A stretch of DNA of 63,999 nt, filler included, from Stramenopiles sp. TOSAG23-3 (Eukaryota): assembly GCA_900128585.1 (NCBI GenBank). It is 16 parts of 16 records of this genome, joined end to end, with 100 filler letters (N's around TTAATTAATTAA, not from the genome) between each part and the next. Parts side by side here need not be neighbours in the genome. Positions count along the whole stretch, not along the records: positions 1 to 3,946 come from LT644016.1; 15 more parts are not named here. One strand, 5' to 3'. How positions within the stretch are numbered: the stretch's first letter is position 1; every line of letters begins with the position of its first letter. A program made the position numbers and the translations under genes. The notes beneath the pieces were generated by a model. The model made no database searches and was not told the DNA's origin. It saw nothing but the letters and a program-made list of their open reading frames with translations. Positions 2,934 through 60,790 of the stretch are shown here, piece by piece.

Positions 2934-3314
2934 ATCAAAGTCCCTGAAAGTTTCTCCATTTTTTGGAGACTCCTGCTAGTAAATCACTTCTTCAAGCTCA
3001 TCAGAGTTACTTGAAGAATCAGACTCCACGTTATCGCCAAAGTTAAAACAGCGGCTAGATTTGTTTTTTGATTGCCTGGTTCTGTTCGACTCTTGCGATG
3101 TTGGGGGTGATAGATTATCAAAGTCCCTGAAGGTTTGTCCACGTTTTGGTGAATCCTGAGGGTAAATCACTTCTTCAAACTCATCAGAGTTACTTGGTGA
3201 ATCAGTCTCCACGGTATCACCAAAGTTCGAACAGCGGCTAGATTTTTTTTTGATTGCCTGACTATGTTCGACTCTTGCGATGGTGGGGGGGATACAATCA
3301 GATATTGGAAACAT
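2934..3314 (-). pseudogene. Orphan ORF built of 183-bp (61-codon) Ser/acidic repeats, with a premature stop
   Basis: AAATCACTTCTTCAA recurs at 2981 and 3164 (period 183). EEVIYPQDSPKRGQTFRDFD recurs as EEVIY*QESPKNGETFRDFD past the stop. A homolog lies at 60316-60480. Confidence 0.6.
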
Positions 3315-3357: not shown

Positions 3358-3396
3358 AAACAAAAATTGGCTGTTATTTAAGTAGTTAAAATTTAA
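3358..3396 (-). repeat. Dispersed ~43-nt motif, copy A
   Basis: Plus strand reads AAACAAAAATTGGCTGTTATTTAAGTAGTTAAAATTTAA. It lies about 44 nt upstream of the minus-strand ATG at 3314. Confidence 0.9.
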
Positions 3397-3535
3397 TCTT
3401 TCTCGTATACTGCGAACTTATCTCTACTGTTGTGATTTTAGTAATCAATATAGATTTTAGTAATCAGTATACCCATGTATAAAAAGAAAAAAGAAGGTGT
3501 CAGTTAAAGAACAATATCTCCTCCTATTGCAGATC

Positions 3536-3836: not shown

Positions 3837-3861
3837 AGTGTCTGCATTTTTTTTTTAATTT

Positions 3862-3904
3862 AAAAACAAAAAATTGGCTGTTATTTAAGTAATTAAAATT
3901 TAGC
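3862..3904 (-). repeat. Dispersed ~43-nt motif, copy B (full length)
   Basis: AAAAACAAAAAATTGGCTGTTATTTAAGTAATTAAAATTTAGC. On the minus strand it is followed by an A-run and an ATG at 3847. Confidence 0.92.
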
Positions 3905-3946
3905 TTTCTCATGTACCGCGAAAATGAATCTGCTCCTTTTGTCCAT

Positions 3947-4046: not shown

Positions 4047-4234
4047 ATAGTGTTCTGAAAGAAGGGTGCCTCAAAAACCGCATTAAACATTTTATTACGT
4101 GCGCGCAGTAAATCTTTACAATCGTATGAGCTCGTAAAAATCTTAGATTCTTTATGATAGTTAATATGTCATATGTGACGCAAATTTCGAACCTGGACGC
4201 GAGATCGACGCTGTCAAATTGCATTTGCATATAC

Positions 4235-4262
4235 AAAAACAAGAAAAATTGGCTGTTATTTT
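4235..4262 (-). repeat. Dispersed motif, copy C (truncated)
   Basis: AAAAACAAGAAAAATTGGCTGTTATTTT, about 50 nt past the stop of the 4310-5785 gene. Confidence 0.85.
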
Positions 4263-4309
4263 ATACACATTTCACATAGCATCTGTTGGGGACTACTCCC
4301 CTCGCCTCT

Positions 4310-5785
4310 TTAAGCGTACTGCCCAAGAAGGAAGAGTCCGTATCGGACCCCACTCTCCAGTCGTGAGACACCATGCAAAATTTTGTTGTCGTGAATAGTG
4401 TAACTTCCCGCGCGGCGGGATGGGACCGTGATTTTTGCGTCTCTTCCATTGACGTAGACTAATTTTCCACCAACGTAATCCGTGTCACTGTTCAACGGGA
4501 CTTGCATGGTGAGCTGTGAATGGTCCGTGTGCAATTTAATCCATTCCCCATGACTGGCGCATCGTCGGATCTTGATTTCGTTGATAATGCCAGGGAATAA
4601 CTTGGTCAATGTCAACACATTTGGTTCTCCAATCAAATTAATCAGCGAGGCTCGGTCAAGATCAATCTTCAAATCGTTGCTATTGACCTGCAACAAATGC
4701 TGGCAATTTTTATGCTTTCGATCAGCATAACTCTTCAGAGTCTTGCACAACGACAATTCCAGAACAGTTTCTCTGCACGCAGTGAAAGTTGCATTCTGTT
4801 TTGTTTTGTTGTACTTCCCGATGCAATCCAGAGGAAGCGTGGCCTGTGGTGGCAGTGGGTTTGCATTCAGGAATTTGGCTCCGCATGTATCGTCCTCGTG
4901 CTGGGCGAAAACGCCTATGTCCCCAAATTCTTCTTGATGAACATCAATAATATCCCTATCCTCCAGTTCGAGAGAGGCTGGAGTGTCCCCATATGACAGT
5001 CTTTCTCCGTCCAACAGGAAATATAGGTTTCTAAGATCCTGGCTTGTTCGTTGCGCATATGCACGAAACACTTTACTCATTTGTGTTGAACGTTTTACGA
5101 TAAAGAATAAAGATTCATCACTCCAATCATCACGTAGATGGATGGTGAGACGTTGCTCCCCTCCGACCCCCCTCCCACTTCTGATCTTTTTTGGGTTTTT
5201 CTTCCTTGCCACTGCCGGGGACTTCCTCTTCTTTTTTTGGGCAGCGGCTACAGAGGTAGAAGTTTGCGGAAGCGTTGCCGCAGTAGCAGGCGCAGACGCC
5301 ACATCACCACCAAGCCTTGCTTTCACAGAACGGTATATTTTTAACCTTTCGACACTTATTGGAGTATCACCGCCTGACCTCAAGATCACGTCCACTTCCT
5401 CAAATAGCAGGTACTCGCTTGCTGTGATAGTTGCGCCACCCTGTGATGATGTCGGTAATGAAGTGTCAGCCACACCAGCAGGTTCATCGGATTCCAAATC
5501 CACAACGGCCCCGTGTTTATACGCATCAGCAGTATCTTGGGCCACTCTGTCATGAACTGTCATACTACGGACAGTTCTCACCCCTTGCTTGGTATTGTTC
5601 TTCTCTGGAAACAGGCTCCTCTTGACCACCAAAGTTTTGAGACGCTCCATCCAATATTTCTTGAGTTTCGGGCCGGTGGTGTAACACTCCGTGTCGCCCA
5701 AATCAAACAAACCTGCCTTTATCTCAGCAATAGTCATTCGTCCCAATTTCTTATTGCGAAACTTGAAATCGGCAGGGTCTGCCAT
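4310..5785 (-). CDS. Multidomain protein: SAP-like N-terminus + SUMO-like (Rad60-SLD) domain + 2OG-Fe(II) oxygenase
   Basis: SUMO-like segment LTIHLRD..LFFIVKRSTQMSKVFRAYAQR..LYFLLDGERL..DTPASLELEDRDIIDV. Oxygenase motifs LHTD, TMQVPLN..DYVGGKL, ILHGVSRLESGVRYGLFL (HxD...H...R). The N-terminal MTIAEIKAGL..KKYWMERL is weakly SAP-like. Confidence 0.8.
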   Translation of the reverse strand: MADPADFKFRNKKLGRMTIAEIKAGLFDLGDTECYTTGPKLKKYWMERLKTLVVKRSLFPEKNNTKQGVRTVRSMTVHDRVAQDTADAYKHGAVVDLESDEPAGVADTSLPTSSQGGATITASEYLLFEEVDVILRSGGDTPISVERLKIYRSVKARLGGDVASAPATAATLPQTSTSVAAAQKKKRKSPAVARKKNPKKIRSGRGVGGEQRLTIHLRDDWSDESLFFIVKRSTQMSKVFRAYAQRTSQDLRNLYFLLDGERLSYGDTPASLELEDRDIIDVHQEEFGDIGVFAQHEDDTCGAKFLNANPLPPQATLPLDCIGKYNKTKQNATFTACRETVLELSLCKTLKSYADRKHKNCQHLLQVNSNDLKIDLDRASLINLIGEPNVLTLTKLFPGIINEIKIRRCASHGEWIKLHTDHSQLTMQVPLNSDTDYVGGKLVYVNGRDAKITVPSRRAGSYTIHDNKILHGVSRLESGVRYGLFLLGQYA

Positions 5786-6140
5786 GGTGTCAATAACCTA
5801 CTTGCAAGGGTGGCTTGAAGAAATACTCAGTTTTTCTGTATAGATGATAGAGGTGAAATAAACCACTATGTTTATCCGCAATATCTTGCAACTAAATACA
5901 TAAAACACCTCATAAAGCCATTAATACATTTATCTTCTCTTCTATAACAGTCTTTTGTTTCTTCTACGAAGAAAAGGTATTACCGGTGGTGGTATGATGA
6001 TGGGAAGAATCAAAAATGAATCAACAACAATGAAGAAGAAGAAGTATTATAATTGTTTTCTACGGTGGTGTGTCTATATATATTATATAATATAAAATAG
6101 ATAGAAGAAGACGACGAAGAAAATCGCAAGCAGGGGGAGG

Positions 6141-6292
6141 AAATAACAGCCAATTTTCTTGTTTTTATTAAATTGGATTAAGTTTATTTTTAATCTATAG
6201 AGTCGTGGCCAATTGGATTCTTGACCAGAAATTGGGAAGGATCTGTGAACGGAGGAGATTATTGTTCTTGAACTGACACTCCCTTTTAACAC
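6141..6292 (+). repeat. Dispersed motif copy D plus a cassette homologous to 3496-3570
   Basis: AAATAACAGCCAATTTTCTTGTTTTT at 6141-6166. The reverse complement of ~6208-6280 (GTGTCAGTTCAAGAACAATAATCTCCTCC..CAGATCCTTCCCAATTTCTGGTCAAGAATCCAATTG) aligns with 3497-3567. Confidence 0.85.
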
Positions 6293-6350: not shown

Positions 6351-7928
6351 TCACGCTTCCGCGCGCGCCTTCTTTTTCTGAACATACTTGGCATGGCCGG
6401 TCTTTGCTACTTTCCGAAGTCCGGGCAGACAAACGACAACAAAACAACACGCCAGTTGAAGCACGACGACAAATGCTGACAGAATAACGCCAATGCCAGC
6501 GCTGGGCCGGTACAGGTCGCCCGTTGCATCCTTGTCCCCTGCTCGTAGCGTCAAAATTGTCCTTTCGTTGAACGAGAAAAGCCTGGTCCTTGGCCCCCAT
6601 CCAACGGTGCCTTCGCTGATGTACACCTGGGTTGAATCTAAGCGCGAGAGTCCGGCAAAGTAGCCCCTGTTTGCCAACCATATAGCAATGTGTAAGGGAA
6701 ACAGATGGCCTGCGTGCGTGTGCCCCGATATTTGAAGACTGACCTTCTCTTTCGCAGCCTCCTCAATTTGCAAAGGCTGATGGGCAATGAGAACCCTTGC
6801 CCTGCCGGAGGACGTTCCAGAAAGGGCCTCTTTCAACTTAGGGGAATGGCCTAAGTCTGGCACGCCGATCAAATCAAACGTCTCGTTGCAAGATGGGTTG
6901 TACGGCGTGCCCGGCACTGTCGTCCGATTGTTGTGGAGTGGCACGACGCCCTCATCCTTCCAAAATTTCTCCCAGTCCGCTCCGCTTCCACCATGAAGGT
7001 ACTCGTGGTTACCGGTGGAGAAGAAAATTCCAAACTTGGTCTTTAAATCTCTGGATATTGGGTACAAAGCCGGACCGACGTCGGAAGTTGGACCATCAGC
7101 CATGTCTCCGGATAAAATTGCGATGTCCGGCGACTCTTTGTTCATCAATTCAACCTGACGAGCTATTTCTGTTTTACCAATCAATGGGCCAGCATGAACG
7201 TCGGAGAACACACCAACTTTGAACCCGTCCAAGCACGGGGGCAGCTCCTTCAGGAACACATCGACTCTGACCGTTTTTCCTGCGTCATACCCATTTGCCA
7301 GCGATAAAATTGTAAACAACACGTAACAACAACCAGCCCCGAAAGATTTTCTCTGCTCAACTATCCGCCCCAGGTTGTCCGTCCCTGCGCCCTCTGCTTT
7401 GCGGACCCTCAAGAAGGCCAGCCTGGCGACGTCAATACAGTCCACTACGAATATGGCCAGCAACAGTATCAGGGTAGACCCCAGGAGGTTGTATGAGAAC
7501 GTCACGTACCCATTTGGCTCAACGCCAATTATTTTCAAGGACACTATTTGCGTCAGTGGGGTGGACGTAAACGCCAAAAATATGTACACGCCAAAAACGA
7601 GCTTCGCGATTGTTTCGCGGCGAAACGTCATCCTCCCCGCGACTATGAACGACTTTTTGCGTTCCGCCTCTGTGAAAAGCCACGGTTTACGAAATATTTT
7701 TTCCCATGCGTACAGCACGGAGACGTACAAAATTATTATAGAAATTGCAAAAATGGCGTTGCTGGTAGCAATCATAACTAAGACCATGATGAAAAGTGCC
7801 ACGTTACAAAGCAAACCCGCCGACGGGCAAACTGCATGTCCACGCGTTTCCGCACCATCGCCGGGCAACAGTTCCTTTTTTTCAATGTTCATGGGCGCGC
7901 CGGCGACAGTTGCAACGTTGTTGGACAT
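6351..7928 (-). CDS. Transmembrane calcineurin-like metallophosphoesterase (TMPPE/YkuE-like)
   Basis: Several N-terminal TM helices, the motifs SDVHAG, SGDMAD, TGNHE, IAHQP and SGHTHAG, and a C-terminal TM. Confidence 0.9.
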   Translation of the reverse strand: MSNNVATVAGAPMNIEKKELLPGDGAETRGHAVCPSAGLLCNVALFIMVLVMIATSNAIFAISIIILYVSVLYAWEKIFRKPWLFTEAERKKSFIVAGRMTFRRETIAKLVFGVYIFLAFTSTPLTQIVSLKIIGVEPNGYVTFSYNLLGSTLILLLAIFVVDCIDVARLAFLRVRKAEGAGTDNLGRIVEQRKSFGAGCCYVLFTILSLANGYDAGKTVRVDVFLKELPPCLDGFKVGVFSDVHAGPLIGKTEIARQVELMNKESPDIAILSGDMADGPTSDVGPALYPISRDLKTKFGIFFSTGNHEYLHGGSGADWEKFWKDEGVVPLHNNRTTVPGTPYNPSCNETFDLIGVPDLGHSPKLKEALSGTSSGRARVLIAHQPLQIEEAAKEKVSLQISGHTHAGHLFPLHIAIWLANRGYFAGLSRLDSTQVYISEGTVGWGPRTRLFSFNERTILTLRAGDKDATGDLYRPSAGIGVILSAFVVVLQLACCFVVVCLPGLRKVAKTGHAKYVQKKKARAEA

Positions 7929-8702: not shown

Positions 8703-9389
8703 ATGTCAACAAGTCCAGATAGTGCTAGGAGTGGGTATAGTACCACGTCCGTGGGGAGTAGTCGTTTGGGCGTTGGGCATTTAATAGATGAGGGGTATAG
8801 GTACCCATCTAGAGTCGAGCTGGCTGGTCGGTTTACGACGACACCAGTGCACCCTATGCGTGACATCCTATGGTCCGACAATAGAAAGTGGAGGCTCTGC
8901 CTCGCTGGCACTATGCTCACCATTGTTATGGCATTTTTTCGTAATGCACCGAGAACGCTGGAGGCACGCCTCCAGTTCTTTATCAACCTGGCATTCTATA
9001 TTGCCATCCTTGGTGCCATCGTCATTTTTCTTGTAATATTTGCGCGCCTGTATAACCCGGCAGAGCAGATAATCGGTTTCTTTAAGAAAAAGTTCAACCG
9101 CCGGCGGCGGCGCTCAAAGAAGTATTCGTACGAGAGGATGAAGAGACCGGCAGGGGTAGACGATGTACAGAACACCCTTGGCCTGAGCAAGAATGCGCGC
9201 AGGTATAGACCCCAGCCGCCGTCGACGCAATACCCTGGGGACAGCGCGGTTTTGGGCGGGAAAGATCTAGCGAAGGAGAGGCAGCGGCGCCAGTTCAACC
9301 AAGAACTGGTGGAAAAAAATGAAGAGTTCCGCGGGCTTGAATTCAAAGAGGAGGAGGACACCAGCGAGGACGACATGTACTACCCTTGA
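8703..9389 (+). CDS. Hypothetical membrane protein (2 TM)
   Basis: 228-aa ORF in a GC-rich island between AT-rich flanks, with two hydrophobic segments followed by a basic stretch. Confidence 0.65.
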   Translation: MSTSPDSARSGYSTTSVGSSRLGVGHLIDEGYRYPSRVELAGRFTTTPVHPMRDILWSDNRKWRLCLAGTMLTIVMAFFRNAPRTLEARLQFFINLAFYIAILGAIVIFLVIFARLYNPAEQIIGFFKKKFNRRRRRSKKYSYERMKRPAGVDDVQNTLGLSKNARRYRPQPPSTQYPGDSAVLGGKDLAKERQRRQFNQELVEKNEEFRGLEFKEEEDTSEDDMYYP

Positions 9390-9425: not shown

Positions 9426-9451
9426 AAAACAAGAAAATTGGCTGTTATTTA
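9426..9451 (-). repeat. Dispersed motif, copy E (truncated)
   Basis: AAAACAAGAAAATTGGCTGTTATTTA, between two convergent gene ends. Confidence 0.85.
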
Positions 9452-9748
9452 TATAATTTGTTTTGTTTTTTATATAATATGCAGGACCAGACAAATGTAC
9501 GTCATGATACGTATACATGTATTATACGAAAAGTAAGTTTTTATAAGAAATATTTTAATATAAATTTTATCCACCCAATGATGAACTTTATACACTTGTT
9601 AAAACTTACGAAAATGTTTGTGTAAGAGCTTTACATGTTACGACGCATTGCGCCCGCAAGGCTCCTGCTTCTTGCGCAATGTACCCACAGTTGAAAATCA
9701 AATTGCACTGCACCTGCACCCCGTACGTACATGCTCCCGCCCGTCCCC

Positions 9749-11608
9749 TCACTTTTTGCTGTAGCGCGGTTCGGGCGAAGCTTTCCTTCCCTTTGGTGGG
9801 CTTTTCTTGACGATCGGCTTCTTGCTCCCCGGTATGTACCTTTCCGTGGTCGTGCGGTCCCATCCAAACACACTTTTCTTTGGGGATGTGCTGTCGTCCC
9901 CGTGAAGGCTGGTGGCAGACGAGTTGACTTCAATGTGCCTCACACCAGAGCTGCGCTCTGCGGCAGCAATGCTTGCACTCTTCTTCATCTTCTTCCTGGC
10001 CGTCTTCCGCTTTGCGGGGGGGGAGGGCGTGCTGGACTTGGACTCTTGCCGGCTTTCCTCGCGCGGCGTTGTTTCGGGCGGGTCCGTCGCCACTATGACC
10101 GCCTCCTTCACTTGAGCCACTAATTCCCCAATGCTTTCTTGGTCGGCCATGTCTACTACCTCCCTCCGCGCCTCCTCCACCGCGGTGTGGATGCGGCTTG
10201 GGGAGACGGGCTTCAAAAACGCACGCAAACTGGTCGGCCTCCTCGACGGGGAGTGGTCCCCCGTCTTTTTCTTGCCGTTCGTCTTCCCACGCCCATTCTT
10301 GGCAGCGGGGGCGGCGGTGCTTTCTATTAGGTGCACTGGGGCATCTTTCAGGGCTTCCAAGGCGCTGTCGATTTGCTCCAGCTTTTGCTTCACAATGCGT
10401 TCCCGGCGCATGCTCGCCAGCACGTCGTTGGACTTCAGGGTCGGCTCCCGCTTGGACTTCTCCTTGTTGACGTCGGCCGGGTCGACCAGTATGTAGGTCC
10501 CGCGGCGCTCGTCAAAGACCAGGCCCGTGGGCGCCGTATGCTCCCGCAAATCCTGGTGCTCGACCAGCTTCGTTTCCAAATCTACGAGAACCTCGCTCTC
10601 GCCCTCCTCCGGGCAATACGCGTTCGGGGCGTCGGGGACGCGGGCGGATGTGGGCTTGCCGTCGGGCGCCTCGCCGGTCTTCTGCCCGTACAGTTCGGCG
10701 TGGGCCTCTTGCCGTATCTCGTCCATCATGTCGGCCATGATGTCGTTCACCCGGTCCTCTTCCTCCTCCGTGAGAAGGACCTGCCGGCCCATCTGCGCGC
10801 TCCGCTTGTTCACGGCGTCGACCCTTGAGGGCGACGTGCCGTCGTTCTCGCTAGGGCTGACCGGGGCCGGCTTCGTCCTGCGCCTCACGGGCTCCGCCAC
10901 CTCGCCGTCCTCGTCCTCGTCCTCGCCGCCCCCCTCGCTCCCCTTCAGCTTGCTCTTGCTCTCCAAATACTTCATCTCCGCCTTCTCCAGCTCCATGTCC
11001 AGCTCTTGGATTCTCCCCAGTCCCAACTCCAACTTCTTCTTCATCTTTCGCTCCTCCTCTTCGTTTGGGTGCTCCAGGACCTGAGTGGAGATGAACTTTC
11101 TCCACCCCGCCTCCCGCTTCGCCTCCTTTTCGGCGTCCGAGTCGAAGCTGTCGGGAAAGTCGACGAGCTTGTCCCCCGCCTCATCCGTCCGGCCCCGCAC
11201 CTCCTTCACGTAGGCCTCAAGCTCGGCGCGCATCTTCGCCTGCTCGTCGTTTACTGCGTTCAAACGCTCCTCGATCTTTCCCATGCCAGATACGGGGGTC
11301 GGGGCCGACGGGACGCCCGTGATAAAGGTCGGGTCCGAGGCGACAGTCCCCTCGCCGCCCCCTCCCTCCTCCTCGGGAGCGGTGTACTTTCCCTCGTACC
11401 GCCTGTCGACCGATCCGGAATCTGGGCCTGGAACGTTTTCCCCCCACGCTTCGTTCTTCACGTGTATGGGAGCTTGCGATGCCGATTGATCGTTTCGTTT
11501 CGTCGGCCCAGCCTCTGCCCCGGAACCACCATTACCAACAACGTTGGCAAGGGACCCGCCCAGTGCGTTCACGTCTTTCAACGCCTGCCGCGGGGTCAAG
11601 CTCGCCAT
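9749..11608 (-). CDS. Coiled-coil protein resembling fibrous sheath-interacting protein 1 (FSIP1-like)
   Basis: Motifs GLGRIQELDMEL, LTEEEEDRVNDIM, NAYCPEE..LVDLETKL and LASMRRER..KLEQIDSALEAL appear in FSIP1-like order. First ATG is at 11608. Confidence 0.6.
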   Translation of the reverse strand: MASLTPRQALKDVNALGGSLANVVGNGGSGAEAGPTKRNDQSASQAPIHVKNEAWGENVPGPDSGSVDRRYEGKYTAPEEEGGGGEGTVASDPTFITGVPSAPTPVSGMGKIEERLNAVNDEQAKMRAELEAYVKEVRGRTDEAGDKLVDFPDSFDSDAEKEAKREAGWRKFISTQVLEHPNEEEERKMKKKLELGLGRIQELDMELEKAEMKYLESKSKLKGSEGGGEDEDEDGEVAEPVRRRTKPAPVSPSENDGTSPSRVDAVNKRSAQMGRQVLLTEEEEDRVNDIMADMMDEIRQEAHAELYGQKTGEAPDGKPTSARVPDAPNAYCPEEGESEVLVDLETKLVEHQDLREHTAPTGLVFDERRGTYILVDPADVNKEKSKREPTLKSNDVLASMRRERIVKQKLEQIDSALEALKDAPVHLIESTAAPAAKNGRGKTNGKKKTGDHSPSRRPTSLRAFLKPVSPSRIHTAVEEARREVVDMADQESIGELVAQVKEAVIVATDPPETTPREESRQESKSSTPSPPAKRKTARKKMKKSASIAAAERSSGVRHIEVNSSATSLHGDDSTSPKKSVFGWDRTTTERYIPGSKKPIVKKSPPKGRKASPEPRYSKK

Positions 11609-11974
11609 CCTGTTTTGAATGGGAAGGATGGATGGATAGAAGGAAGAAAAGAAACGTAACAAAAACCAATATAAACGTAATCAATGTTTTTGTAAAAAGG
11701 CAATCATTACATTAAATTAATTATACTATGTTCACTTCTTTCTCTCTTCCTTTTGAATTATCAATTGTATATTATTACAAGTGAGTTTGGTCTTCTTTTT
11801 AAGTGTCAAGAAGTGTCATTTACATATATAATAATTTTAAAATATTTAATAATAATAAAATTGTTGTTTGTTTTTTTCATTTTCTTATTCTATTTCCATG
11901 TTATTTTATTATATAATTGATTGTGCGATCACCTTCTTCTTCCTACCTCTACCGTTACATTTCAAAAATAATAA

Positions 11975-24228: not shown

Positions 24229-27200
24229 GCGTCGCCTCGAGCAATACGTAAAGTGTTGACTTCGGTGGTGGATGTAGGGGATAGAGGAAAAGGTTGTTGT
24301 GACACCGGTGCAGACGTGAATCTGATAACGCAGAGAGCGCTTGAGTTTGAGTGCGTTAAGGTGATCAGAGAACACGACATCGATGTCAAGTTATCCTTTG
24401 TAGATGGTTCGACGGCGACAGCGAAAAAGGAAATTTTCTGTGAAATAACTGACAGTAAAGGTCGAAAAAGAAGGGATTGGTTTATCAAGCAGGAAATGGA
24501 AGATGTAGATATATTATTTGGCGTCACATTCATGGATGGACGCAACACTGAATTTAATTCGGCGCTAGGACTTATAACGACATGGGATTGGACAGGCAGT
24601 CCATTCGAGCTTCGGATGGAAAGGCGGTCCAGGAATAAATCGAGGACGAAATCCAGAAAGTTACAAGCGTTGGGAAAAAGGAGAGTGAATTGTAAACAAA
24701 AAGATTTTCGACGAGTGTTGAGGGTGGCCAAGTCGGTCGACCTAGGACCTGGTTGGAACCAAATTATGCAAAACGATTTGGGCATAAATTTGACAGGACA
24801 AGCGTTGGTGACAGAAAGTGTAAAATTGCGACTGGGAATGAGGGGATTGTCAATCCCAAATCAGATCTTTAATGATGCTGATACGCCGGTTAATATTTTT
24901 TCTGTAGTGCGAACGGAGATTCCAAGTCGAGTTTTGTTGGGGAGAGTAGACCCGCAGCCGAAATTATTGCGAGATTTAAATGGGAAAGAAAACCCAGCGT
25001 GGGATGTGCAGCGCATGTTCCGCCAAATGTTAAACGAAGAAATAGCGAATTTAAACGAGGGCGTGATAGACGAACCAACGCAAGATGCACCTTCTGGAGA
25101 CGAAGGGGGAGATTTTCCCTCTGGAGACGAAGGAGATGGCGATGGGGCGGACTTGGCAGATGAGGAACTTTCGTCCGATGACGAAGACAATCTGCAGCCA
25201 AAACCAGTGCGCAGGATGGGATTGAATCCAGCAGAAGAGGACCCGCCTGTTCAGTTCAAAGACGAAGACGTCGTCGAAGACGGGAAGCATTGGAAAACGT
25301 TATTGAATCGCGATCCAACTCTAGATCCACAGTACAGAGTGGTGACAGATGAGGAATTTAATGTGATTTGGAAAGAGCTAGAGCTCGATTCGAACACAGT
25401 GTTTGAAAAGGAGATGAACGACGAGGAAAGGGGCCAACTGACAAGTGTCTTGAAGGCCTATGCGCATGTCATGGCAAAGGAGGTACAGCCGATCGACAAG
25501 AGTGTGGGGGAACATGCGATTCCACTACAACCCGGTGCAGTTCCCGTGTCGTCTTATCAATACAGCTTGCGACCTGAGAATCAGGAAAGTGTACGCGAGT
25601 TTGTAAAAACGATGTTGAAAGCGGGGTTGATTAAGAAGTGTAGTTCACCTTGGAACTCACCTCTCTTAGTGACACCCAAACCAGATGGAACGCCACGAAT
25701 TTGTTTTGATGCAAGGAAATTAAATGCGGTAACGATCAAGGATCAATACCCAGTCTCCAGTGCGCAGTTGTGTCTTCGCCGACTCAGAGGCAGTTCGCTG
25801 TTTAGCACAGGCGATATGCTCAGTGGGTTTTGGCAGATTCCGCTTCGCTTGGAAGATCAATTAAAAACGGCATTTTCGACAGAGGATGGCCAATTTTGTT
25901 TTACGGTTATGCCCTTTGGGCTGGCCAATGCGTCAAATTGTTTTTGCCGAGTGATGTCGGATATCGTGGGCGAATTAAAACATCTGTTTTGTATTTTATA
26001 TATCGATGATTTTTTGTTGAATTATCGTGAACATGTTGATGCCGAAGAAGGCAGGTCCGAATTTGCAGTACACATAGAACAAATCGAAGCAATGCTTGCG
26101 GCGCTGAGCATAGCAGGGATGTCCCTGAAGGCGACCAAGTTGCATTTGCTGAGGAGGATAGTTAAGTTTCTAGGACACTTAGTAGACAGACATGGACTCA
26201 AAATGGATCCTGAGAAAGTTGCGTCAATTGTAAATGCTAAAGTTCCGACGACGAAGCGTGGCGTACGTGCATGGATTGGGATAGTAAACTACTACCGCCA
26301 TTTTGTTAAAAATATCGGAAAGATTTTACATCCGCTGTATGAATTGCTAAAGAAAAAGGCAAAGTGGAAGTGTGAAATTCCGAATGGTTCGAGGGCGTAT
26401 AAAGCGATTCAGGTAATAAAACGTTTGCTAACGCATGAACCGATAGTGTTAAGCCACCCGGATTTTACGAAGGATTTTGAGATCCAAACGGATGGTAGTA
26501 TCGCCGGCTTGGGAGCAGTACTGGTCCAGTATGAAGACGCCAAAAACGAGAAGGGCGAAGTGATTCTAGAGGCGGACGGTAAACCCAAGCAGGTCGAAAG
26601 AGTAATTGAATACGCCAGCAAGGCACTTAACGATGCAGAACGGAATTACACGGCGAGGGAGTTAGAGGCGCTTGCCCTACTCTTTGCTTGCAGAAAGTGG
26701 CATGCGTATTTAGGACGGAAATTTACGGCAGTAGTTGACCATAAGAACCTACTCCAGTTACAAGATTATGTTAAGCACAATAGGCGTTTGGCAAGGTGGG
26801 CGACGGGGCTGAGTCCCTACGATATTGAATTGAAGTATAGAAAAGGGGAGGATCACGTGCCCCCCGATTTCCTTTCAAGGTTGCCAACGTTTACGAATGA
26901 TGGACCCGCAGAAGGTGATCCAGTAATAAGAATCGTGTCGAGAAAAATATTTAACATCCAGAGAGAGGAAAGCGTGGTACATGAACACGATCCTGGAAAT
27001 AGACGCGGAAAGAAAGTATATGTGAAACTAAATCAGACGCCGGAGATAACGAGGGAGTTGATCTATGACGCGCAGCGCGAGGATCAGGCCTGGAGACAAA
27101 TTGCCGACGATTTAGAAAAACCGGAACGATTGCGAAAACTCCACCACTCGCATCTCTATAGGTTAGATGAGGATGGTGTGTTGTTGTTTGATGGAGTGAA

Positions 27201-28156
27201 GGCGAAAGGTGATGCAGACCTGGACCCAGATATAAATAAAATCAATAATCGCATTGTGATTCCGGAAGTTTTAAGAGACGCTGTGTTGTGGCATTACCAC
27301 GATCACATCTTGCAGCAGCATCGTAGCGCTCGCGCTATGTACGAGGATATGGCTATTTTGTATTTTTGGCCAGCGATGCAGTACGATATTAAGGACTATT
27401 GCAAGTCGTGCCCAGATTGTGCAAAGGCGAAGGTACGCAAAAAGTCCAGAAGCGATCGATTGAAGAGCATGTTGAATCGGATGCCATTTTCGGTACTCTT
27501 CTTGGATCATGTAGAAATCCCGGCGAAAAATAAATGGAACTATACACATATTTTGACGATGATGTGTGGCTTTACAAAATTTTTAATTGCGGTGCCGGTA
27601 ACGAGTGTAGAAAGTGGTACTTCGTGTAAAGAAGTATTTGACCGTGTGGTGTGTGGCCTTGGTCGCCTCCCACAGATAACGGTCGTGGACAATGGTTTCG
27701 ATTCGACGGAGTGGAGGGCGTTTTGTAAGGGTATAGGATCCAGTCCGATACCAACAACCCCGTTTAACCCGAGAGCGAACCAAGTGGAACGTCCACACAG
27801 TTTCCTAAAAGCGTTAATAAAAATAAATGCAGAGGCAATGGGACAAGACGTTTGGCCGCAGCTTATTCAAGCAGAAGTGCGAGCTTACAATACGTTGAAA
27901 GGCCCAGATAAGTTAAGTCCGATGGAGGTCCTGTTTGGATTCCAACCGGATCTGCCAATAGAACGGTTACTGTTTCCAACCACGAAGTCGCTCGTAGAGA
28001 GGACACGTGAACAGTTTCACGGTTATCTTTTGGAAGAGTTGCGTCGCAACCATCGTACACAGCATTTTGATCACCTGGCTAAAGCAGACAGTCGTGTCAT
28101 GCAAGCGATTCGAGATCCGAAGAGATTCGCTCCACCATTTGGCGTGGGCGATTGGG
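24229..28156 (+). mobile_element. Ty3/gypsy LTR retrotransposon pol (protease-RT-RNase H-integrase), both ends truncated by assembly
   Basis: Protease DTGAD. RT motifs SPWNSPLL, RICFDARKLN, FTVMPFGL and LYIDD. RNase H motifs TDGS..GLGAVL, ERNY..ELE and DHKNL. Integrase H-H-CxxC (HDHILQQH..CPDC), LDHV, VDNG and NQVER. Domain order is gypsy-type. Confidence 0.95.
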
Positions 28157-38570: not shown

Positions 38571-39835
38571 CTAAACAACCTCATCTGGGTCGTCCATGTC
38601 GTCCGCACTTGCTGCAGCAGCACTAGACCCGGATCCTTCTTCGCTTCCTGTCGCCGATCCAGAACCAGTACCAGAACCAGTGCCAGAACCGGAACCCTCT
38701 TCGCTACCCGTCGCCGATCCAGAACCAGTACCAGAACCAGACCCTTCTTCCGAACCAGACCCTTCGACGGAGCCAGACCCTTCTTCGGAGCCAGACCCTT
38801 CTTCCGAACCAGAGCCTTCGACGGAGCCAGACCCTTCGACGGAGCCAGACCCTTCTTCCGAGCCAGATCCTTCTTCCGAACCAGACCCTTCTTCCGAGCC
38901 AGACCCTTCGACGGAGCCAGATCCTTCTTCGGAGCCAGATCCTTCATCTTTCTTGACAAGCTTTTTCATACCTTTCTTAGCCTTTTTCATGCTTTTCTTG
39001 GTCAGTTTCATTGATTTCTTCTTCTTCTTCGGCTTTGGTTTCTCTTCGGAGCCAGACCCTTCTTCCGAACCAGACCCTTCTTCCGAACCAGACCCTTCGA
39101 CGGAGCCAGACCCTTCTTCCGAACCAGACCCTTCTTCCGAACCAGACCCTTCTTCGGAGCCAGACCCTTCTTCCGAACCAGACCCTTCTTCCGAGCCAGA
39201 GCCTTCTACTGAACCAGACCCTTCTACTGAACCAGACCCTTCTTCCGAGCCAGACCCTTCTACGGATCCAGACCCTTCGACGGAGCCAGATCCTTCTTCC
39301 GAACCAGATCCTTCTTCGGAGCCAGACCCTTCTTCCGAGCCAGATCCTTCATCTTTCTTGACAAGCTTTTTCATACCTTTCTTAGCCTTTTTCATGCTTT
39401 TCTTGGTCAGTTTCATTTGCTAACCATTGACTTCTTCTTCTTCTTCGGCTTTGGTTTCTCTTCGGAGCCAGATCCTTCTACAGAGCCAGACCCTTCTTCC
39501 GAACCAGATCCTTCGACGGAGCCAGACCCTTCTTCCGAACCAGACCCTTCGACGGAGCCAGACCCTTCTTCCGAACCAGATCCTTCGACGGAGCCAGACC
39601 CTTCTTCCGCGCCCGTTGCTCCGGTGCTCGCGCCCGTTGCTCCGGTGCTCGCGCCTGTGGCGTCGGTTGTTTGTTCGTCTTCATCATCATTTTCTTTTGC
39701 AACCTGTCTTGCTTCTTCTTCTTTTCCGGGCCCTGACGCCAACTGCTCGCCCTTGGAGTGGCGTAATAAGCCAGCATCGCTCACAACCACAAAAGCGAGA
39801 AGCAGTATTAAAAGTGAATACAACGTTAACTTCAT
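38571..39835 (-). CDS. Secreted low-complexity repeat protein ([12 protein letters not shown] hexapeptides alternating with Lys/Met-rich blocks); frame break at 39414-39427
   Basis: Signal peptide [21 protein letters not shown], 18-bp repeat arrays, and two copies of [31 protein letters not shown]. The first copy carries 11 extra nt (ATG-GTTAGCAA-ATG). Confidence 0.8.
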
Positions 39836-40360
39836 CCTTCAATACGGTTCGATTTCTTTCCTTCGCTTTTATTGCAAACGTTCGATACTCTACCTTTTAT
39901 TTTTTCCCGTTATTGAGGTGAAGCCAAAAATTACACTCTATTCCACCGATAGACTCTTTCTACAATTGTACAAACCTCCCTCATACACCAAAGTTCCACC
40001 GGTTCAGAATTCAGAATGTACACAAGTTTCTCGCTCCCAAGGTCATAATAATTTCATTTTTTTTATTATTATTAAGAAGTACCAACCCCGCTACACCGTT
40101 TAATACTAGAGCGCTCTATTGCATCAAAAATCCTCCCCCCCCTTTTTATTGATCATGTTAACTTATAGGTCAATGACATCACCTTCCTCGTTTCATAATA
40201 CTTACTAAAATAATTTAANNNNNNNNNNNNNNNNNNNNNNNNNNNNNNNNNNNNNNNNNNNNTTAATTAATTAANNNNNNNNNNNNNNNNNNNNNNNNNN
40301 NNNNNNNNNNNNNNNNNNGGGGGGGGGGGGTTATGATAAAGATCGGTTATGCTTTGTGCT

Positions 40361-40425
40361 TAAGATATTTTAAAAACAAGAAAATTGGCTGTTATTTAAG
40401 TAATTAAATTTAGCTAAGATATTTT
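40361..40425 (-). mobile_element. Solo full-length 43-nt motif (40372-40414) flanked by the 11-bp direct repeat TAAGATATTTT
   Basis: TAAGATATTTT-AAAAACAAGAAAATTGGCTGTTATTTAAGTAATTAAATTTAGC-TAAGATATTTT, read directly from the sequence. Confidence 0.75.
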
Positions 40426-40479: not shown

Positions 40480-42468
40480 TCAAACGGCAGGGCTCGAGTT
40501 GAATTTCGCACGCTCCTCAATTTCCTTCATTACTCTCAAAACCATCTCGTCGTTGTACGGTAGACTGGCCACTTGGACACCAACAGGCATTCCTTTACTC
40601 CCTTGAGTCTCTTCCATAGCGGCCTTGTCCAAAGAATCGTTCGCCGGCGTTCCCACATAAACGCCGTCTTCGTCTTCCCGTACCTGGGTCACTGGCACAA
40701 CACCACATGGCCAGTCCAGGAGATTCCACATGGTATTATAATGGAATGACGCTTGCAACTTTCGAAACCCACCATGCGTCAATGCTGGCAAGGACGATCC
40801 TGGGGATACGATTACGTCAAGCTCCAGCGCTTTGGCCATATGAACCCACTTTTCTTGGTAGCTCTTCATTTTTGCCACCAGTCCCCAGTACTCGTACGTA
40901 CTCCTCGCGCCCAAACAGCGGTTTAGCATTGCTTTTCGCGGTTCTCCCAACACGTATTTCAATACGGCCGAAATGGGTGCTCGCAGCAAGTTCGGGATAA
41001 GGCTGTACATGTATATCATTTTGTAGTTTTCAACAAACTGCTCTCCGTACAGCCCTTCCCGCATGGACCGCAGCTGCCCATCGCTAGACAAAAGCCCTGC
41101 GTACAGGCCAAAGCCCTCTGCACTGGACGGCACGGCATCGTAAATGTCAATGCATTCGTGCCCAAGGGCGTATAGGTGGTCGACGGCCTCGTGTACGGCC
41201 CTATTGCATGCCGGGGAGGACGGGAAGTATGGCGAAGATGCGAAATAGCCGATCCGTAGCCGACGTTTCCCGGTTAGGATATCCTTACGCCACGGAACTG
41301 GAGGGCGGTAAGGATCGTGGCTCCACATCATTCGTCCCTTTCGCGGCTCCAGCATCGCCCGCGTGTACAGTACAATGTCGTCGACGGACCTCGCCATGGG
41401 CCCGCTCGTTGATCTGATAGCCAGTTGCCCGTTTTGGCCATTGTATCGTGGGGCGCGCATGCCAAGTTTCGTCAGCCGAGTTGATGTCGGCTTCAACCCA
41501 CAAATCCCACAAAAGTGAGCCGGTATTCGTATCGACCCCCCGATGTCCGTGCCAATTCCAAGGGGGGATGCATGAGCGGCAATCAGGCCTCCTTCGCCTC
41601 CTGAACTTCCACCCACCGTCCGCCCGAAGTTGTGCGGGTTGAACGACCGACCAAACACGTTATTGTCGGTTTCTGGGACCATCATTGCTTGGGGGACATT
41701 AGAGCGAATGAATGGAATGGCCCCTTGCTCGTGGATGATCTGAAGGTATTTTCCGTCCTTCTCTGCGGGGGAAAAAAGGAAGGCAGGGCAACCGCACGTG
41801 GTGTCGTACCCTTCTTGGTGGAAAAGGTCCTTGATCGACACTGGAAGCCCCAACATTGGAGGCTCTTTTACCCCTTTGTTATTGGAATCGTTTCTCCAGG
41901 CATCCACCATGTCTGCCGCTTGAAGGGCTTCGATGAAACAGAATTCCGTCCCACAGTTTAAAATCTCTTGAATCCCTGCAGCCCGAGCGCAGAACGCAGT
42001 AATAATTTCCCGACAGGTCAACTCCTTCGAACGCATCTTGGCGAGCAGAGTTGTTGCGGACATATGGATGATGTCGGACTCTTTTGGGGGCCGCAAGCCG
42101 TCCAATTTAAGAATTGTCACTACACGCGCGTTGCGTTCCTTTACTTTCACCACCTTCTCTTTCGCAAGTTCCCGCAAAACGGCCCTTCGTTGCCTTGTCC
42201 GGTAATATGCCAAAACTTTGGGGAGAAGAAAAAGGACACTGAACACCCCAGCACCTACAGTGGAGGGGGCAACTGTCGCATTTTTTCGAGCACTGTACAG
42301 TTTGAATATTTTCGTCAACACGTACGACGATATCAAACTAACCGAAAAAGATGGGGCGTCGTCTCCCATGTCTACTTTCGGTGCATCAAGCACAGGGTGA
42401 GGGGACAAACGTGGGGACGCGGACGGGGGCGGCACCGCGTCTTTCATGTCCTTTGAACTTTCAGCCAT
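40480..42468 (-). CDS. Fatty-acid amide hydrolase-like amidase
   Basis: GLPVSIKD, amidase signature GGSSGGEG and GTDIGGSIRIPAHFCG, and GMPVGVQV. Likely start is MAESS at 42468. Confidence 0.92.
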   Translation of the reverse strand: MAESSKDMKDAVPPPSASPRLSPHPVLDAPKVDMGDDAPSFSVSLISSYVLTKIFKLYSARKNATVAPSTVGAGVFSVLFLLPKVLAYYRTRQRRAVLRELAKEKVVKVKERNARVVTILKLDGLRPPKESDIIHMSATTLLAKMRSKELTCREIITAFCARAAGIQEILNCGTEFCFIEALQAADMVDAWRNDSNNKGVKEPPMLGLPVSIKDLFHQEGYDTTCGCPAFLFSPAEKDGKYLQIIHEQGAIPFIRSNVPQAMMVPETDNNVFGRSFNPHNFGRTVGGSSGGEGGLIAAHASPLGIGTDIGGSIRIPAHFCGICGLKPTSTRLTKLGMRAPRYNGQNGQLAIRSTSGPMARSVDDIVLYTRAMLEPRKGRMMWSHDPYRPPVPWRKDILTGKRRLRIGYFASSPYFPSSPACNRAVHEAVDHLYALGHECIDIYDAVPSSAEGFGLYAGLLSSDGQLRSMREGLYGEQFVENYKMIYMYSLIPNLLRAPISAVLKYVLGEPRKAMLNRCLGARSTYEYWGLVAKMKSYQEKWVHMAKALELDVIVSPGSSLPALTHGGFRKLQASFHYNTMWNLLDWPCGVVPVTQVREDEDGVYVGTPANDSLDKAAMEETQGSKGMPVGVQVASLPYNDEMVLRVMKEIEERAKFNSSPAV

Positions 42469-50039: not shown

Positions 50040-50997
50040 TATTAAATTGGCGGGGGAAAGTAGAAGTAGGCGTTGGTTTGTATTTATCTATTCGATTTTC
50101 ACACCTATAGAAGATTATCACATTTAAATTTTCATTCGTATATTAATCATCAGATTTATGTACAATCTATATAATTCACCTTTCTTTTTACAATTAATTT
50201 TTATTGCAATGAAGAAGAAGTAGAAGTCACTATATATTAATAGCACTAAGAAGAAGAAGAAGAATCTCATCTTCTTCTTTTCTCATCTCATTCTCTTCTT
50301 GTTTTCCTTCTTCTCTTCTTCTCCTTCTTCTCTTCTTCTCTTCTTCTCTTCTTTTCTCTTCTTCTTTTCTCTTCTTCTTTTCTCTTCTTCTCTTCTTCTC
50401 TTCTTCTCTTCTTTTCTCTTCTTCTCTTCTTCTCTTCTTCTTTTCTCATCTCATTCTCTTCTTGCTTCTCTTCTTCTCTTCTTCATTCTTCTTCATTCTT
50501 CTTCTCTTCGTCTCTTCCGATTTTATTATTATTATTATTTATATAACAGTTTCATGATGTATTTATTTACTTATTTATATTGAATATTGAAGTTTCAACT
50601 AACCAACTCTTCTTTCTTCTTCTTCTTCTTCTTCTTTCTTCTTCTTTCTTCTTTCTTCTTCTTTCTTCTTCTTTCTTCTTTCTTCTTTCTTCTTCTTTCT
50701 TCTTTCTTCTTCTTCTTTCATTTTTTAAAATATTTGTACAAAAAATATAATAATAACAACACAACAAGGAGGAGGGGGGGGGTTAAATAATAATAATAAA
50801 TAATAATCATCTCATCTCACATTCTTTTCCTTTTTTTAACGTATACACATTTGAATATTTCACCATCCGTCTCATAATTTTCATTACCACAAAAATATTG
50901 GGGTGTACGATAAAGGTGTACCTCCCTTGTCCTCATTTCCATACAGATTTTTGTCATTCTTTGCTCGTTGGAAAGGTTTGGTGGTGGTGGTTGCAAG

Positions 50998-52056
50998 ATG
51001 GCGAGTAACTCATCGGTCGTGGCGGCGGCTGGGAAACGAAGCACCGTGTCGAAGCACTTTATGTGCTACCTGCTTCGGTCCTTGAACCCGAAACACCCAC
51101 GGAGCACTTACATAGGCTTTGCAGTTCATCCAAAGCGAAGAATTAGACAGCACAATGGGGAGATAAAGGGTGGAGCGTACCGGACGAAACGAAAAGGTCC
51201 GTGGGAGATGTGTGCTGTGGTCCAAGGGTTCCCGAACAAAGTCTGCGCGCTTCAGTTCGAATGGGCGTGGACGAACCCGACGAAGAGCCGTTTGCTCCGC
51301 TCGTACATTCCAAAAACGAAGAAGTACGGGTGCAGGGAGAAGATTAATTTGCTGACGACGATGCTTGCGATCGACCCTTGGAAGAACTACGGTTTGAAGG
51401 TCCACTTTAACTGCGAGGATGTGAGAAAGATGTGGGACCAGCTGGCTGCGAAAAAAATCAACTCAAACGCTTCGGGGGTGGCGGAGCGGTCCGTCGACCT
51501 CACGGCCGTCCCCGTGACCCTGGGGTCCATGGACATGCTGGACGTGTACGTGGACAAACAGACTGAAAAGGACCGGGGAAAGCATGCGCCGCCTGAGTCC
51601 CAAACAGGGATTCCCTCGACGCCAGACGCGTTCGAAAAAAATTCCGTCGCGAAAAGCTGCGTTTTCTGCGCCGAGGACATATTCTCTATCAGAGGTTTTG
51701 CCAAATGTCCAAAGTGCAGTATTCAGGCACACTTGGGGTGCATGGCCGAACATTTCTTAGAAGACCCAGAGGACTTGTTGCCCAAGTCTGGCGAGTGCCC
51801 CTTCTGTGAAGCGGAAGTGGTGTGGTGCGACGTCGTTCAGAAAGGGGCAGAAGCCCGGCAGCCGTCGCCGCGCTACACTCCCGTTCGCCCCCCAAAGGGG
51901 CGCAAGAAGATGGCGAAGGAATCCAAGAAGAAGAAGACGACGAAGAAGAAGAAGAAAGTCATTAGGGCGGGCACGACCGCAAAACGGCGCGGTGGCATTA
52001 CTAACGCGGAGAACTTGGTCCCGCGGAACCAAATCATAATAATAGACGTGCTGTAG
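50998..52056 (+). CDS. SLX1: Structure-specific endonuclease subunit SLX1
   Basis: CYLLRS..TYIGF..PKRRIRQHNGEIKGGA.RT, ALQFEWAW, and a C-terminal C4HC3 zinc finger (CVFC..CPKC..HLGC..CPFC). Confidence 0.93.
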   Translation: MASNSSVVAAAGKRSTVSKHFMCYLLRSLNPKHPRSTYIGFAVHPKRRIRQHNGEIKGGAYRTKRKGPWEMCAVVQGFPNKVCALQFEWAWTNPTKSRLLRSYIPKTKKYGCREKINLLTTMLAIDPWKNYGLKVHFNCEDVRKMWDQLAAKKINSNASGVAERSVDLTAVPVTLGSMDMLDVYVDKQTEKDRGKHAPPESQTGIPSTPDAFEKNSVAKSCVFCAEDIFSIRGFAKCPKCSIQAHLGCMAEHFLEDPEDLLPKSGECPFCEAEVVWCDVVQKGAEARQPSPRYTPVRPPKGRKKMAKESKKKKTTKKKKKVIRAGTTAKRRGGITNAENLVPRNQIIIIDVL

Positions 52057-52186: not shown

Positions 52187-52224
52187 AAACAAGAAAATTG
52201 GTTGTTATATTTAAGTAATTAAAA
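52187..52224 (-). repeat. Dispersed motif, copy G (runs into contig end)
   Basis: AAACAAGAAAATTGGTTGTTATATTTAAGTAATTAAAA, about 130 nt after the SLX1 stop. Confidence 0.85.
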
Positions 52225-60315: not shown

Positions 60316-60790
60316 ACTCATCAGAGTCACTTGGAGAATCAATCATCCCTTTATTGCCAGAACTCGAATAGCGGCTGGACTTGTGTTGTGATTGCCTGGA
60401 TCCGTACGACTCTTTTGGTGTGTTGGGGGGGGGGTAGGTTATCAGCGTCTCTGGAGTTGGGTCCAAATTCTGGAAAGCCCAGCCGGTGAAGCACTCGGTT
60501 ACACTTAGCGGAGGTAGCTGGAGAATCCCTTTCCACATCATTCCCGGAGTTCAAACAGTGGCTAATTTGTTATGGTTGCCTGGCTCTGGCTGTTATATAT
60601 ATATATTATTTACAACACAAATTGGCTTTTATTTTTTAAAATAAATTAAAATTTAGCCTATTCATATTATTAATATTATATAAATATAGATTTGAGTAAA
60701 TTAAATTTATCTTCATGTACCGCGAAAATGAATCTGCTCCTTTTGTCCATTATCGGTTTACGTTCCTTCATGTACTGCGAACAAATCTTT
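60316..60790 (-). repeat. Second copy of the contig-1 cassette: 61-codon-repeat homolog + motif copy H + upstream block
   Basis: 60316-60480 aligns with 2996-3157. A degenerate motif is at 60612-60657. CATGTACCGCGAAAATGAATCTGCTCCTTTTGTCCAT at 60714-60750 is identical to 3910-3946. Confidence 0.85.

Follow-up and report, generated by a model that had tools for sequence, protein, structure and literature searches.

A short dispersed sequence behind stop codons in a marine stramenopile, read as the 3′ terminus of a retroposon family

What is a sequence of some 43 nucleotides that recurs behind unrelated genes of a stramenopile? The question is raised by a window of 63,999 nt (the whole stretch of DNA analysed here, filler included) from Stramenopiles sp. 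TOSAG23-3 (GenBank assembly GCA_900128585.1), which is made up of 16 unlinked contigs of 3684–3946 nt with N spacers between them. An initial annotation of the window described eight copies of this sequence on six of the contigs, and suggested that they could be reverse-transcribed copies of a spliced leader or small RNA, the terminus of an unclassified mobile element, or a viral promoter carried by endogenised fragments. Here, we argue that the motif very probably forms the conserved 3′ end of short retroposons that make up a family of the non-long terminal repeat (non-LTR) type and reside in the nuclear genome of the host. Judged from the published literature, the family is previously undescribed: the motif string occurs in no paper of the literature searched, and no paper was found there on such a motif in stramenopiles. 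Given copies with intact duplications of their target sites, the family has apparently been active recently.

A dispersed repeat with one fixed end

The 16-mer AATAACAGCCAATTTT has eight matches in the window. Six are exact, at 3363–3378(−), 3870–3885(−), 4245–4260(−), 6142–6157(+), 9434–9449(−) and 40381–40396(−), and two carry two mismatches, at 52194–52209(−) and 60618–60633(−). The mean expectation from 100 dinucleotide-preserving shuffles is 0.14 matches, and none of the shuffles reaches eight. An nhmmer profile of the 50-nt element picks out the same eight places together with one weak extra (6.5 bits, contig 16), and the scores of degenerate copies form a continuum. Both searches bear out the copies first reported, which lie on contigs 1, 2, 3, 11, 13 and 16. 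Five of the eight are less than 300 nt from a contig end, suggesting that assembly tends to break at the repeat.

A wider count was obtained by scanning the exact 20-mer AATAACAGCCAATTTTCTTG against public metagenome contigs, and this extension of the initial annotation yielded at least 120 loci (L001–L120). All figures below that concern 211 copies (those with at most one mismatch in the core, 204 of them distinct) rest on the 120 loci among the matches listed together with the window; as the loci were picked by an exact 20-mer, their near-perfect core is no evidence of constraint. The 50-nt profile scores at least 25 bits in 115 of the 120 loci among the matches listed. The remaining five (L051, L057, L076, L093 and L120) score below 25 bits and look like chance matches to the 20-mer, two of them on bacterial DNA. 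In L057 (9650–10050) and L076 (2010–2420), which are 95% identical contigs apparently from a different organism, the 20-mer stands without a tail inside an apparent GT...AG intron, and its presence there is probably due to chance.

Over the 211 copies the consensus reads tTAATTTTaaTTAcTTA-AATAACAGCCAATTTT-CTTGTTTTTAatta, and the terminus consists of the core AATAACAGCCAATTTTCTTG followed by four or five T, often with TTAATTTTAATTACTTA before the core. One end of the element is fixed, as had been proposed, but that end is CTTGTTTT(T) and not GCTAAA. The latter marks the start of the copy at 40372–40414 alone, because the duplicated target site AAAATATCTTA bounds this copy there; at 3862–3904 the homology continues upstream of GCTAAA to the end of the contig, and 3883–3946 matches 60690–60750 at 89%.

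Alignment of the flanks, likewise suggested at the outset, reveals a homology that lies upstream of the core and mostly not downstream of it. Sequence directly upstream is shared with another copy in 97 of the 211 cases and sequence directly downstream in 27, most of the downstream matches being one locus assembled twice. The best upstream match is non-orthologous in 91 of the 97 and is 25–600 nt long, with a median of 72. These upstream bodies form at least four mutually different families, of 26, 19, 12 and 7 members, which converge on one common last ~45 nt. Starting points differ between the copies of a family, and the alignment of family 1 displays a stepwise 5′ truncation. One family includes an open reading frame (ORF) rich in Ser and Asp: its long members, L021 and L090, consist of the 3′ part of the ORF and its 3′ untranslated region (UTR), and L035 and L018 are 5′-truncated copies of the same sequence, inserted elsewhere and with duplications of their own.

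Small Ser/Asp/Glu-rich ORFs of this kind occur at 2976–3314(−) in the window, at 1400–2245(−) in L021 and at 4163–4408(+) in L035. They share the repeated unit ..SSRC.FG..DS.S.SDE.EEVIY, and the 3′ part of their mRNA appears to have been retro-copied along with the tail. The word AGTTCGCAGTACAT, found on either strand in the 3′ flanks of many loci (in the window at 3397–3416 and 60720–60780), is part of the upstream body of families 0 and 2. With the core masked, TGCGAACT is present in 35 of 433 3′ flanks and in one of 403 5′ flanks.

Duplications of the target site could be assessed in 142 copies, namely those whose tail is recognisable as ...G-T-run and which have at least 100 nt of sequence upstream and at least 50 nt downstream, duplicates removed; the other 69 of the 211 fall outside these limits. 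The word directly after the T-run was sought within 400 nt upstream, and words 15–45 nt further downstream served as controls. Recurrence was found for the 8-mer in 35 of the 142 copies (control words, 2–6), for the 9-mer in 30 (1–5) and for the 10-mer in 28 (0–3). A perfect repeat of at least 9 nt is present in 38 copies, or in 34 once four made of element-derived words are removed. These 34 clean duplications measure 9–15 bp, with a mode of 11, and begin right after the T-run in 25 cases and after one or two extra letters (A, AA or C) in nine. The upstream repeat abuts the start of the family homology, for example in ...AAAGTTACTTCG/aagctaaatttt... and ...GTGTTGTGTTC/atatgcaagcaatg..., where the slash marks the junction. 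Elements bounded in this manner are 26–336 nt long, and 29 of the 34 have a T-run of four or five. Their target is T-rich/AA, with T at −1 in 21 cases, A at +1 in 29 (a count partly forced by the way the end of the T-run is defined) and A at +2 in 25. A clean case can be read directly in the window, where AAAATATCTTA stands on both sides of a 43-nt element at 40361–40425.

A constant 3′ end, graded 5′ truncation, duplications of variable length and a nick site of A and T together make up the signature of target-primed reverse transcription. An RNA ending in the tail would be copied into DNA at a nicked T-rich/AA target, by an enzyme supplied in trans from a putative endonuclease/reverse-transcriptase element. 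Since reverse transcription would begin at the tail, every copy would keep it; since it would often halt early, copies would be truncated at the 5′ end, to lengths between 26 and more than 330 nt; and filling in of the staggered target cut would leave the duplications of 9–15 bp. Several different tail-bearing RNAs may have been copied, one of them the 3′ part of the small Ser/Asp-rich gene, and this would produce families with nothing but the last ~45 nt in common. The insertions lie, and were apparently made, almost exclusively ~50–250 nt behind stop codons, mainly those of convergent genes, and in either orientation. Among the explanations first put forward, it is the terminus of an unclassified mobile element to which the fixed 3′ end, the variable 5′ truncation and the perfect duplications point.

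Several observations weigh against a retroposon terminus. A clean perfect duplication of at least 9 nt is lacking in 108 of the 142 assessable copies. In the window, one of the eight copies has a long duplication and one a 6-bp repeat; in the six copies other than those at 40372 and 4236 the repeat is undetectable or the copy is cut by a contig end. No empty-site allele was seen in five useful overlapping loci, all of which carry the same copies, and in this comparison the pair formed by L004 and contig 8 proved paralogous in the flank. A reverse-transcriptase or endonuclease gene with the tail was not found in 821 kb of loci around motif copies. The [FY]xDD word occurs in 25 ORFs of at least 200 aa (23 in the loci and two in the window); scanning of the 23 from the loci gave no reverse transcriptase, all Pfam matches being to host-type proteins, and the sole reverse transcriptase of the window belongs to the Ty3/gypsy pol of contig 7, with no motif nearby. 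The element ends in T4–5 and none to two A, whereas long and short interspersed nuclear elements (LINEs and SINEs) usually have tails of poly(A) or of a short tandem repeat; on account of this atypical tail, we do not claim membership in the narrow L1/SINE sense. A tRNA-, 5S- or 7SL-like head was not found either, with ARAGORN reporting no genes in 10 long-copy loci, and Rfam at E ≤ 1 gave in seven loci only sub-threshold microRNA-like matches at an inverted pair. The T4 runs within the element would also be expected to stop RNA polymerase III (Pol III). Perfection of the core, finally, is uninformative about constraint in loci chosen by it.

Location behind stop codons and presence in RNA libraries

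With ORFs of at least 120 aa taken as a proxy for genes, three of the 211 copies lie inside a gene. Downstream, 158 copies face a gene on the opposite strand, 17 are followed by one on the same strand (mostly at least 300 nt off) and 33 have no neighbour; upstream, the nearest gene shares the strand of the copy in 142 cases and lies on the other strand in 19, and 47 copies have none. The motif therefore lies behind stop codons on both sides. It is borne by 65 of 107 convergent, 24 of 144 tandem and two of 64 divergent intergenic regions. Insertions lie ~100–150 nt past stop codons, with distances to the stop ranging over 33–303 nt (10th–90th percentile). In the tandem regions 16 copies are sense and 15 antisense, at a median of 155 nt from the stop codon and 549 nt from the next ATG. 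The larger sample thus bears out, and much sharpens, the bias towards 3′ flanks of genes noticed in the window. A second remark, that four copies are followed by an ATG within 45 nt, corresponds to no signal: ORFs of at least 50 aa start within 150 nt on the sense side of 36 of 203 copies and on the antisense side of 28. Neighbour counts and this test of small ORFs together exclude a promoter or leader preceding genes. Clustering divides the 230 flanking ORFs into 186 groups with at most four members each, from which we conclude that the neighbours are unrelated host genes, such as those for amidase, SLX1-like, ATG5 and dynein, and not a transposon protein.

Outside the regions through which the loci were ascertained, the motif is found in five of 38 convergent, five of 116 tandem and none of 59 divergent intergenic regions. 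With copies masked, convergent, tandem and divergent regions have AT contents of 0.647, 0.651 and 0.665, and contain 9.5, 7.2 and 8.3 TTAAA/TTTAA words per kb, respectively. As composition and target-word density are so alike, the sequence preference of an endonuclease alone cannot account for a ~30-fold difference in location. Copies with intact duplications, presumably the youngest, are placed like the rest. Among those with two neighbours, 17 of 22 copies with intact duplications lie in convergent, four in tandem and one in divergent regions, as against 57, 18 and one of the 76 others, and the nearest facing stop lies at a median of 104 nt from the former and 118 nt from the latter. This favours an insertion-site preference, or a very fast removal of insertions elsewhere, over slow sorting; targeting itself is put forward as a proposal. 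Only tentatively, we suggest that the retroposon is actively aimed at transcription-termination zones, and that its copies may since serve as bidirectional 3′-end or mRNA-control modules. The integration machinery or the tail RNA would on that account recognise some feature peculiar to the DNA behind genes, for instance termination or 3′-processing complexes, R-loops or the chromatin of convergent pairs, and new copies would come to lie 50–250 nt past stop codons. There are 76 pairs of neighbouring copies at most 800 nt apart, and four duplications consist of element sequence, so that clustering is reinforced by new copies landing beside old ones.

A second pair of words, TATATAATTTGTTTTT and CTTAAAACATA, is also present in 3′ flanks in either orientation (window ~9452–9480; L016, L029, L031, L039, L021 and L007), and ACAAATTA occurs in 26 of 433 3′ flanks as against two of 403 5′ flanks. 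The pair may represent another repeat family or a real 3′-end signal.

Three studies supplied four RNA libraries, one of them oligo-dT primed, whose contigs contain the motif with its T-run side joined to many different sequences; a 1436-nt contig has it at positions 1–33 and a 714-nt contig at 680–713. Many RNA-library contigs match 6141–6174, and in three metatranscriptome libraries the summed contig depth over 6027–6290 is 52–148, compared with 5–7 in the neighbouring gene body. These data are k=31 contigs, which carry no strand and no true transcript ends, and stretches that they leave uncovered (such as 4971–5366) are uninformative. RNA contigs end at 6140–6142, 30–31 nt into shared sequence, as assembly breaks at k=31 would give. 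From a 157-nt contig that stops at 6174, just short of the copy at 6141–6166, we draw no conclusion at its low depth (2.7). The pattern as a whole fits elements in the 3′ UTRs of opposite-strand genes or in read-through transcripts.

Table 1. Copies of the element in the window, with the duplicated target site of one of them, and their gene neighbours.
Feature	Position	Strand	Evidence and surroundings
43-nt copy, read as a 5′-truncated retroposon (GCTAAATTT...CTTGTTTTT)	40372–40414	−	Read directly; exact core; nhmmer 38 bits; begins 55 nt past the amidase stop codon (40480–40482), in the same sense as the amidase gene (Pfam domain)
Upstream copy of the 11-bp target-site duplication AAAATATCTTA	40415–40425	−	Read directly
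Downstream copy of the 11-bp target-site duplication AAAATATCTTA	40361–40371	−	Directly after the T5 run
27-nt minimal copy (core and T-run)	4236–4262	−	Sequence reading, 6-mer repeat, Pfam; 48 nt past the stop of a Rad60-SLD ORF (4310–5785, −); between direct repeats TATACA (plus strand) at 4230–4235 and 4263–4268, 6 bp alone being weak evidence
Short copy in a tandem intergenic region	6141–6166	+	Antisense to both genes; ~185 nt past the stop of a metallophosphoesterase ORF (6351–7928, −); next ATG 356 nt away; no detectable duplication
Short copy between convergent ORFs	9426–9451	−	ORFs 8703–9389(+), stop 37 nt off, and 9749–11662(−); no detectable duplication
Longer family-2 copy (..GGAGCAGATTCATTTTCGCGGTACATGAGAAAGCTAAATTTTAATTACTTA, core and T-run)	3858–3946	−	5′ part lost at the contig end
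Second, more diverged family-2-like copy, contig 1	3343–3416	−	84% to 3847–3922; 25.6 bits
Copy with two core mismatches, cut at the contig end	52187–52224	−	16-mer scan, nhmmer; ~130 nt past the stop of the SLX1-like ORF (50968–52056, +), antisense to that ORF
Old, degenerate family-2 copy	60612–60780	−	Two mismatches in the core at 60618–60633; upstream homology to contig 1; upstream end ~230 nt and core ~375 nt past the stop of the ATG5 ORF (61010–61921, −)

The contigs of the window carry long unbroken ORFs for ordinary eukaryotic proteins (ORF calling and Pfam), including an axonemal dynein heavy chain, a WD40 protein, an amidase, a Rad60-SLD protein, an SLX1-like protein and ATG5. An unnamed EukProt protein shares 85% identity with the dynein fragment, whose best named relatives, at 57–60%, come from stramenopiles (brown algae, a thraustochytrid, Triparma and oomycetes). 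The amidase is identical (100%) to a JGI metagenome protein, with the next relative at 53%. The DNA and RNA runs that contain this stretch are marine metagenomes, and ORFs of at least 120 aa occupy 69% of the sequence studied. We take the host to be an uncultured marine stramenopile with few introns.

Other features of the window lie apart from the motif copies. Contig 7 is filled by a near full-length Ty3/gypsy-type pol ORF at 24253–28155(+), with reverse transcriptase, RNase H and integrase, and contains no motif copy. The first and last 79 bases of contig 9 (32283–36200) are identical, as in a circular or tandemly repeated molecule; its ORFs, however, encode ALK/LTK glycine-rich and TNFR cysteine-rich domains, which makes a small circular virus less likely than an assembly overlap or repeat. 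Dense internal repeats of 80–95% identity are found in contig 10 at 38734–39613, where ORFs of both strands overlap, contig 11 begins with a poly-C run (40319–40330), and short-period simple repeats are common to several contig ends (11974–12028, 15986–16063 and 16164–16240).

Alternative explanations

The location of the motif could also reflect a functional element of gene 3′ ends, such as a bidirectional terminator, a poly(A)-site cassette or a 3′-UTR module, that is under selection and whose spread is secondary or due to duplication. Association with stop codons is strong and independent of orientation, the motif is joined to many different sequences in the four RNA libraries, and signal-like words are at hand, with ATTAAA ~20 nt before the element end in antisense and AATAAC...TTGTTTTT in sense. 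Precedents exist in other protists: in Blastocystis a downstream TGTTTGTT defines poly(A) sites, as described in the available text of that study (PMC4159000), and retroposons named SIDERs, in the 3′ UTRs of Leishmania, control the fate of mRNAs in the accounts available (PMC2323293, PMC2943621). Set against this, the motif occupies only five each of the convergent and tandem regions outside ascertainment, TGTTTTT has no strand bias in 103 tandem 3′ flanks (19 sense versus 23 antisense), and the RNA structures of eight folds are not distinct from those of shuffles (z from −1.91 to +0.46). Target duplications with graded 5′ truncation are signs of insertion and not of a conserved site, and degenerate copies grade into one another in score. 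A general poly(A) or termination signal can be rejected for a motif that is found at a minority of 3′ ends, in both orientations and 33–303 nt from the stop; a downstream element of the Blastocystis type is rejected by the absent strand bias, and an RNA hairpin or terminator structure by the eight folds. As an explanation of the motif we consider a selected 3′-end element unlikely, and by analogy with the SIDERs such a function is possible as a secondary co-option.

The other explanations fare less well. The motif might be a terminal inverted repeat, belonging to a DNA transposon or to a miniature inverted-repeat transposable element: 19 of the 76 neighbouring pairs within 800 nt stand in an outward-facing inverted arrangement, and the core is a weak quasi-palindrome (AAATAACAG / CTTGTTTTT). 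Pairs in the same orientation are commoner, however (48 of 76), the inverted ones have neither a common length (48–562 nt) nor a common flanking repeat, and the duplications range from 9 to 15 bp and enclose single copies with a variable second end. No transposase was found near the copies among flanking ORF clusters and in Pfam scans, and we regard an inverted terminus as very improbable. A spliced leader or another small RNA, as relic or gene, with genomic copies retro-copied from the 5′ ends of mRNAs, is suggested by RNA-library contigs that start or end with the motif and continue into different sequences, and the motif presumably resembles, if loosely, the AGCCATTTTGG that the dinoflagellate leader carries. 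The sequence that follows is nevertheless usually the 3′ end of a gene on the opposite strand (158 of the 175 copies with a downstream neighbour), so that 3′ UTRs explain the RNA contigs, whose ends are in addition explicable as k=31 assembly breaks. A locus with motif and GT donor, which would have pointed to a leader, did not emerge: behind the core come a T-run and then the duplicated target. Copies stand in both orientations with a same-strand ORF downstream in only 17 of the 175, and their upstream parts belong to at least four different families. Rfam returned no gathering-score match in the window and nothing relevant at E ≤ 1 in seven loci. The host is a stramenopile by its dynein, and we know of no leader trans-splicing in stramenopiles. 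What survives of this suggestion is that the copies look reverse-transcribed; with no GT donor, copies behind stop codons and at least four families, the spliced leader itself is close to refuted. A viral promoter on endogenised fragments was proposed as well, and giant viruses or others could be its source; the antisense AAAATTGG is presumably close to AAAATTGA, an early motif of mimivirus-like viruses. The 25-mer of the motif, however, matched no viral contigs, the 15 viral contigs that match the 17-mer have neither tail nor upstream extension, the flanking genes are ordinary cellular ones, and the motif is almost never in front of an ORF in either orientation. Within the collections searched, a viral promoter is already refuted.

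Relation to known elements and biological meaning

The nearest counterparts of a retroposon with a shared terminus are the ‘stringent’ LINE/SINE pairs, such as eel UnaL2/UnaSINE1, in which LINE-dependent retroposons share a specifically recognised 3′ tail, and, more broadly, LINE copies that are truncated at the 5′ end. A constant 3′ end, graded 5′ truncation and variable duplications (9–15 bp here) are common features, the T-rich/AA target resembles that of APE-type endonucleases, and unrelated 5′ bodies share a tail, of ~45 nt here. Unlike these counterparts, the stramenopile element ends in T4–5 without a poly(A) or short-repeat tail, has no Pol III-type head and no partner LINE found in the 821 kb, occurs in copies as short as 26–28 nt, and has insertions confined to gene 3′ flanks. 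In this last respect it can be compared to retrotransposons that target particular regions, namely Ty3 and Dictyostelium TRE at Pol III genes, Tf1 at promoters and R2 in ribosomal DNA: insertion is confined to one class of site, coding sequence is spared and the genome is compact. The class of site found here, ~50–250 nt past stop codons and above all between convergent pairs, is to our knowledge not among the classical ones, and we know of no description of integration targeted to termination zones for non-LTR elements.

Two published systems from protists are instructive. The downstream TGTTTGTT of Blastocystis lies at ~96% of poly(A) sites at a fixed distance of 4 nt, in the available text of the report (PMC4159000). 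As far as that text goes, the two systems share a stramenopile host and a T/G-rich word behind genes, and TTGTTTTT is within two changes of TGTTTGTT. The motif described here differs in standing at a minority of 3′ ends, in a T-run word without strand bias and in being bounded by target duplications. SIDER1 and SIDER2 of Leishmania are short interspersed degenerate retroposons in 3′ UTRs, as the available portions of three papers relate (PMC2323293, PMC2689281, PMC2943621). Like the present family, they are, in these accounts, truncated remnants of non-autonomous retroposons that are found in transcripts and, in a compact protist genome, for the most part behind coding regions. By the same accounts they are ~0.5 kb long, extinct and degenerate, with a demonstrated role in mRNA decay and translation, whereas the elements described here are much shorter, occur in both orientations, have perfect duplications in 34 of 142 copies and are known from sequence alone.

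To find a spliced leader or a viral promoter in a stramenopile would have been very surprising, and that reading is now removed. In its place stands, very probably, a family of retroposons, apparently recently active, in a lineage that is known solely through single cells and metagenomes. Its interest goes beyond routine repeat annotation, since the usual A-tail is absent, insertion can leave a stub of 26–28 nt, and even the youngest copies are nearly confined to the space behind stop codons, with the intergenic DNA on the promoter side equally rich in AT and in target words. In practical terms, the repeat is suggested to explain contig breaks, and may serve as a lineage-specific marker for the host protist in metagenomes. 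If the preference for 3′ flanks is true targeting, it would represent a new mode of survival for a mobile element in a genome that is 69% coding, and a ready source of 3′-UTR regulatory sequence. Should targeting and co-option both prove true, an abundant uncultured marine grazer would possess a SIDER-like regulatory layer.

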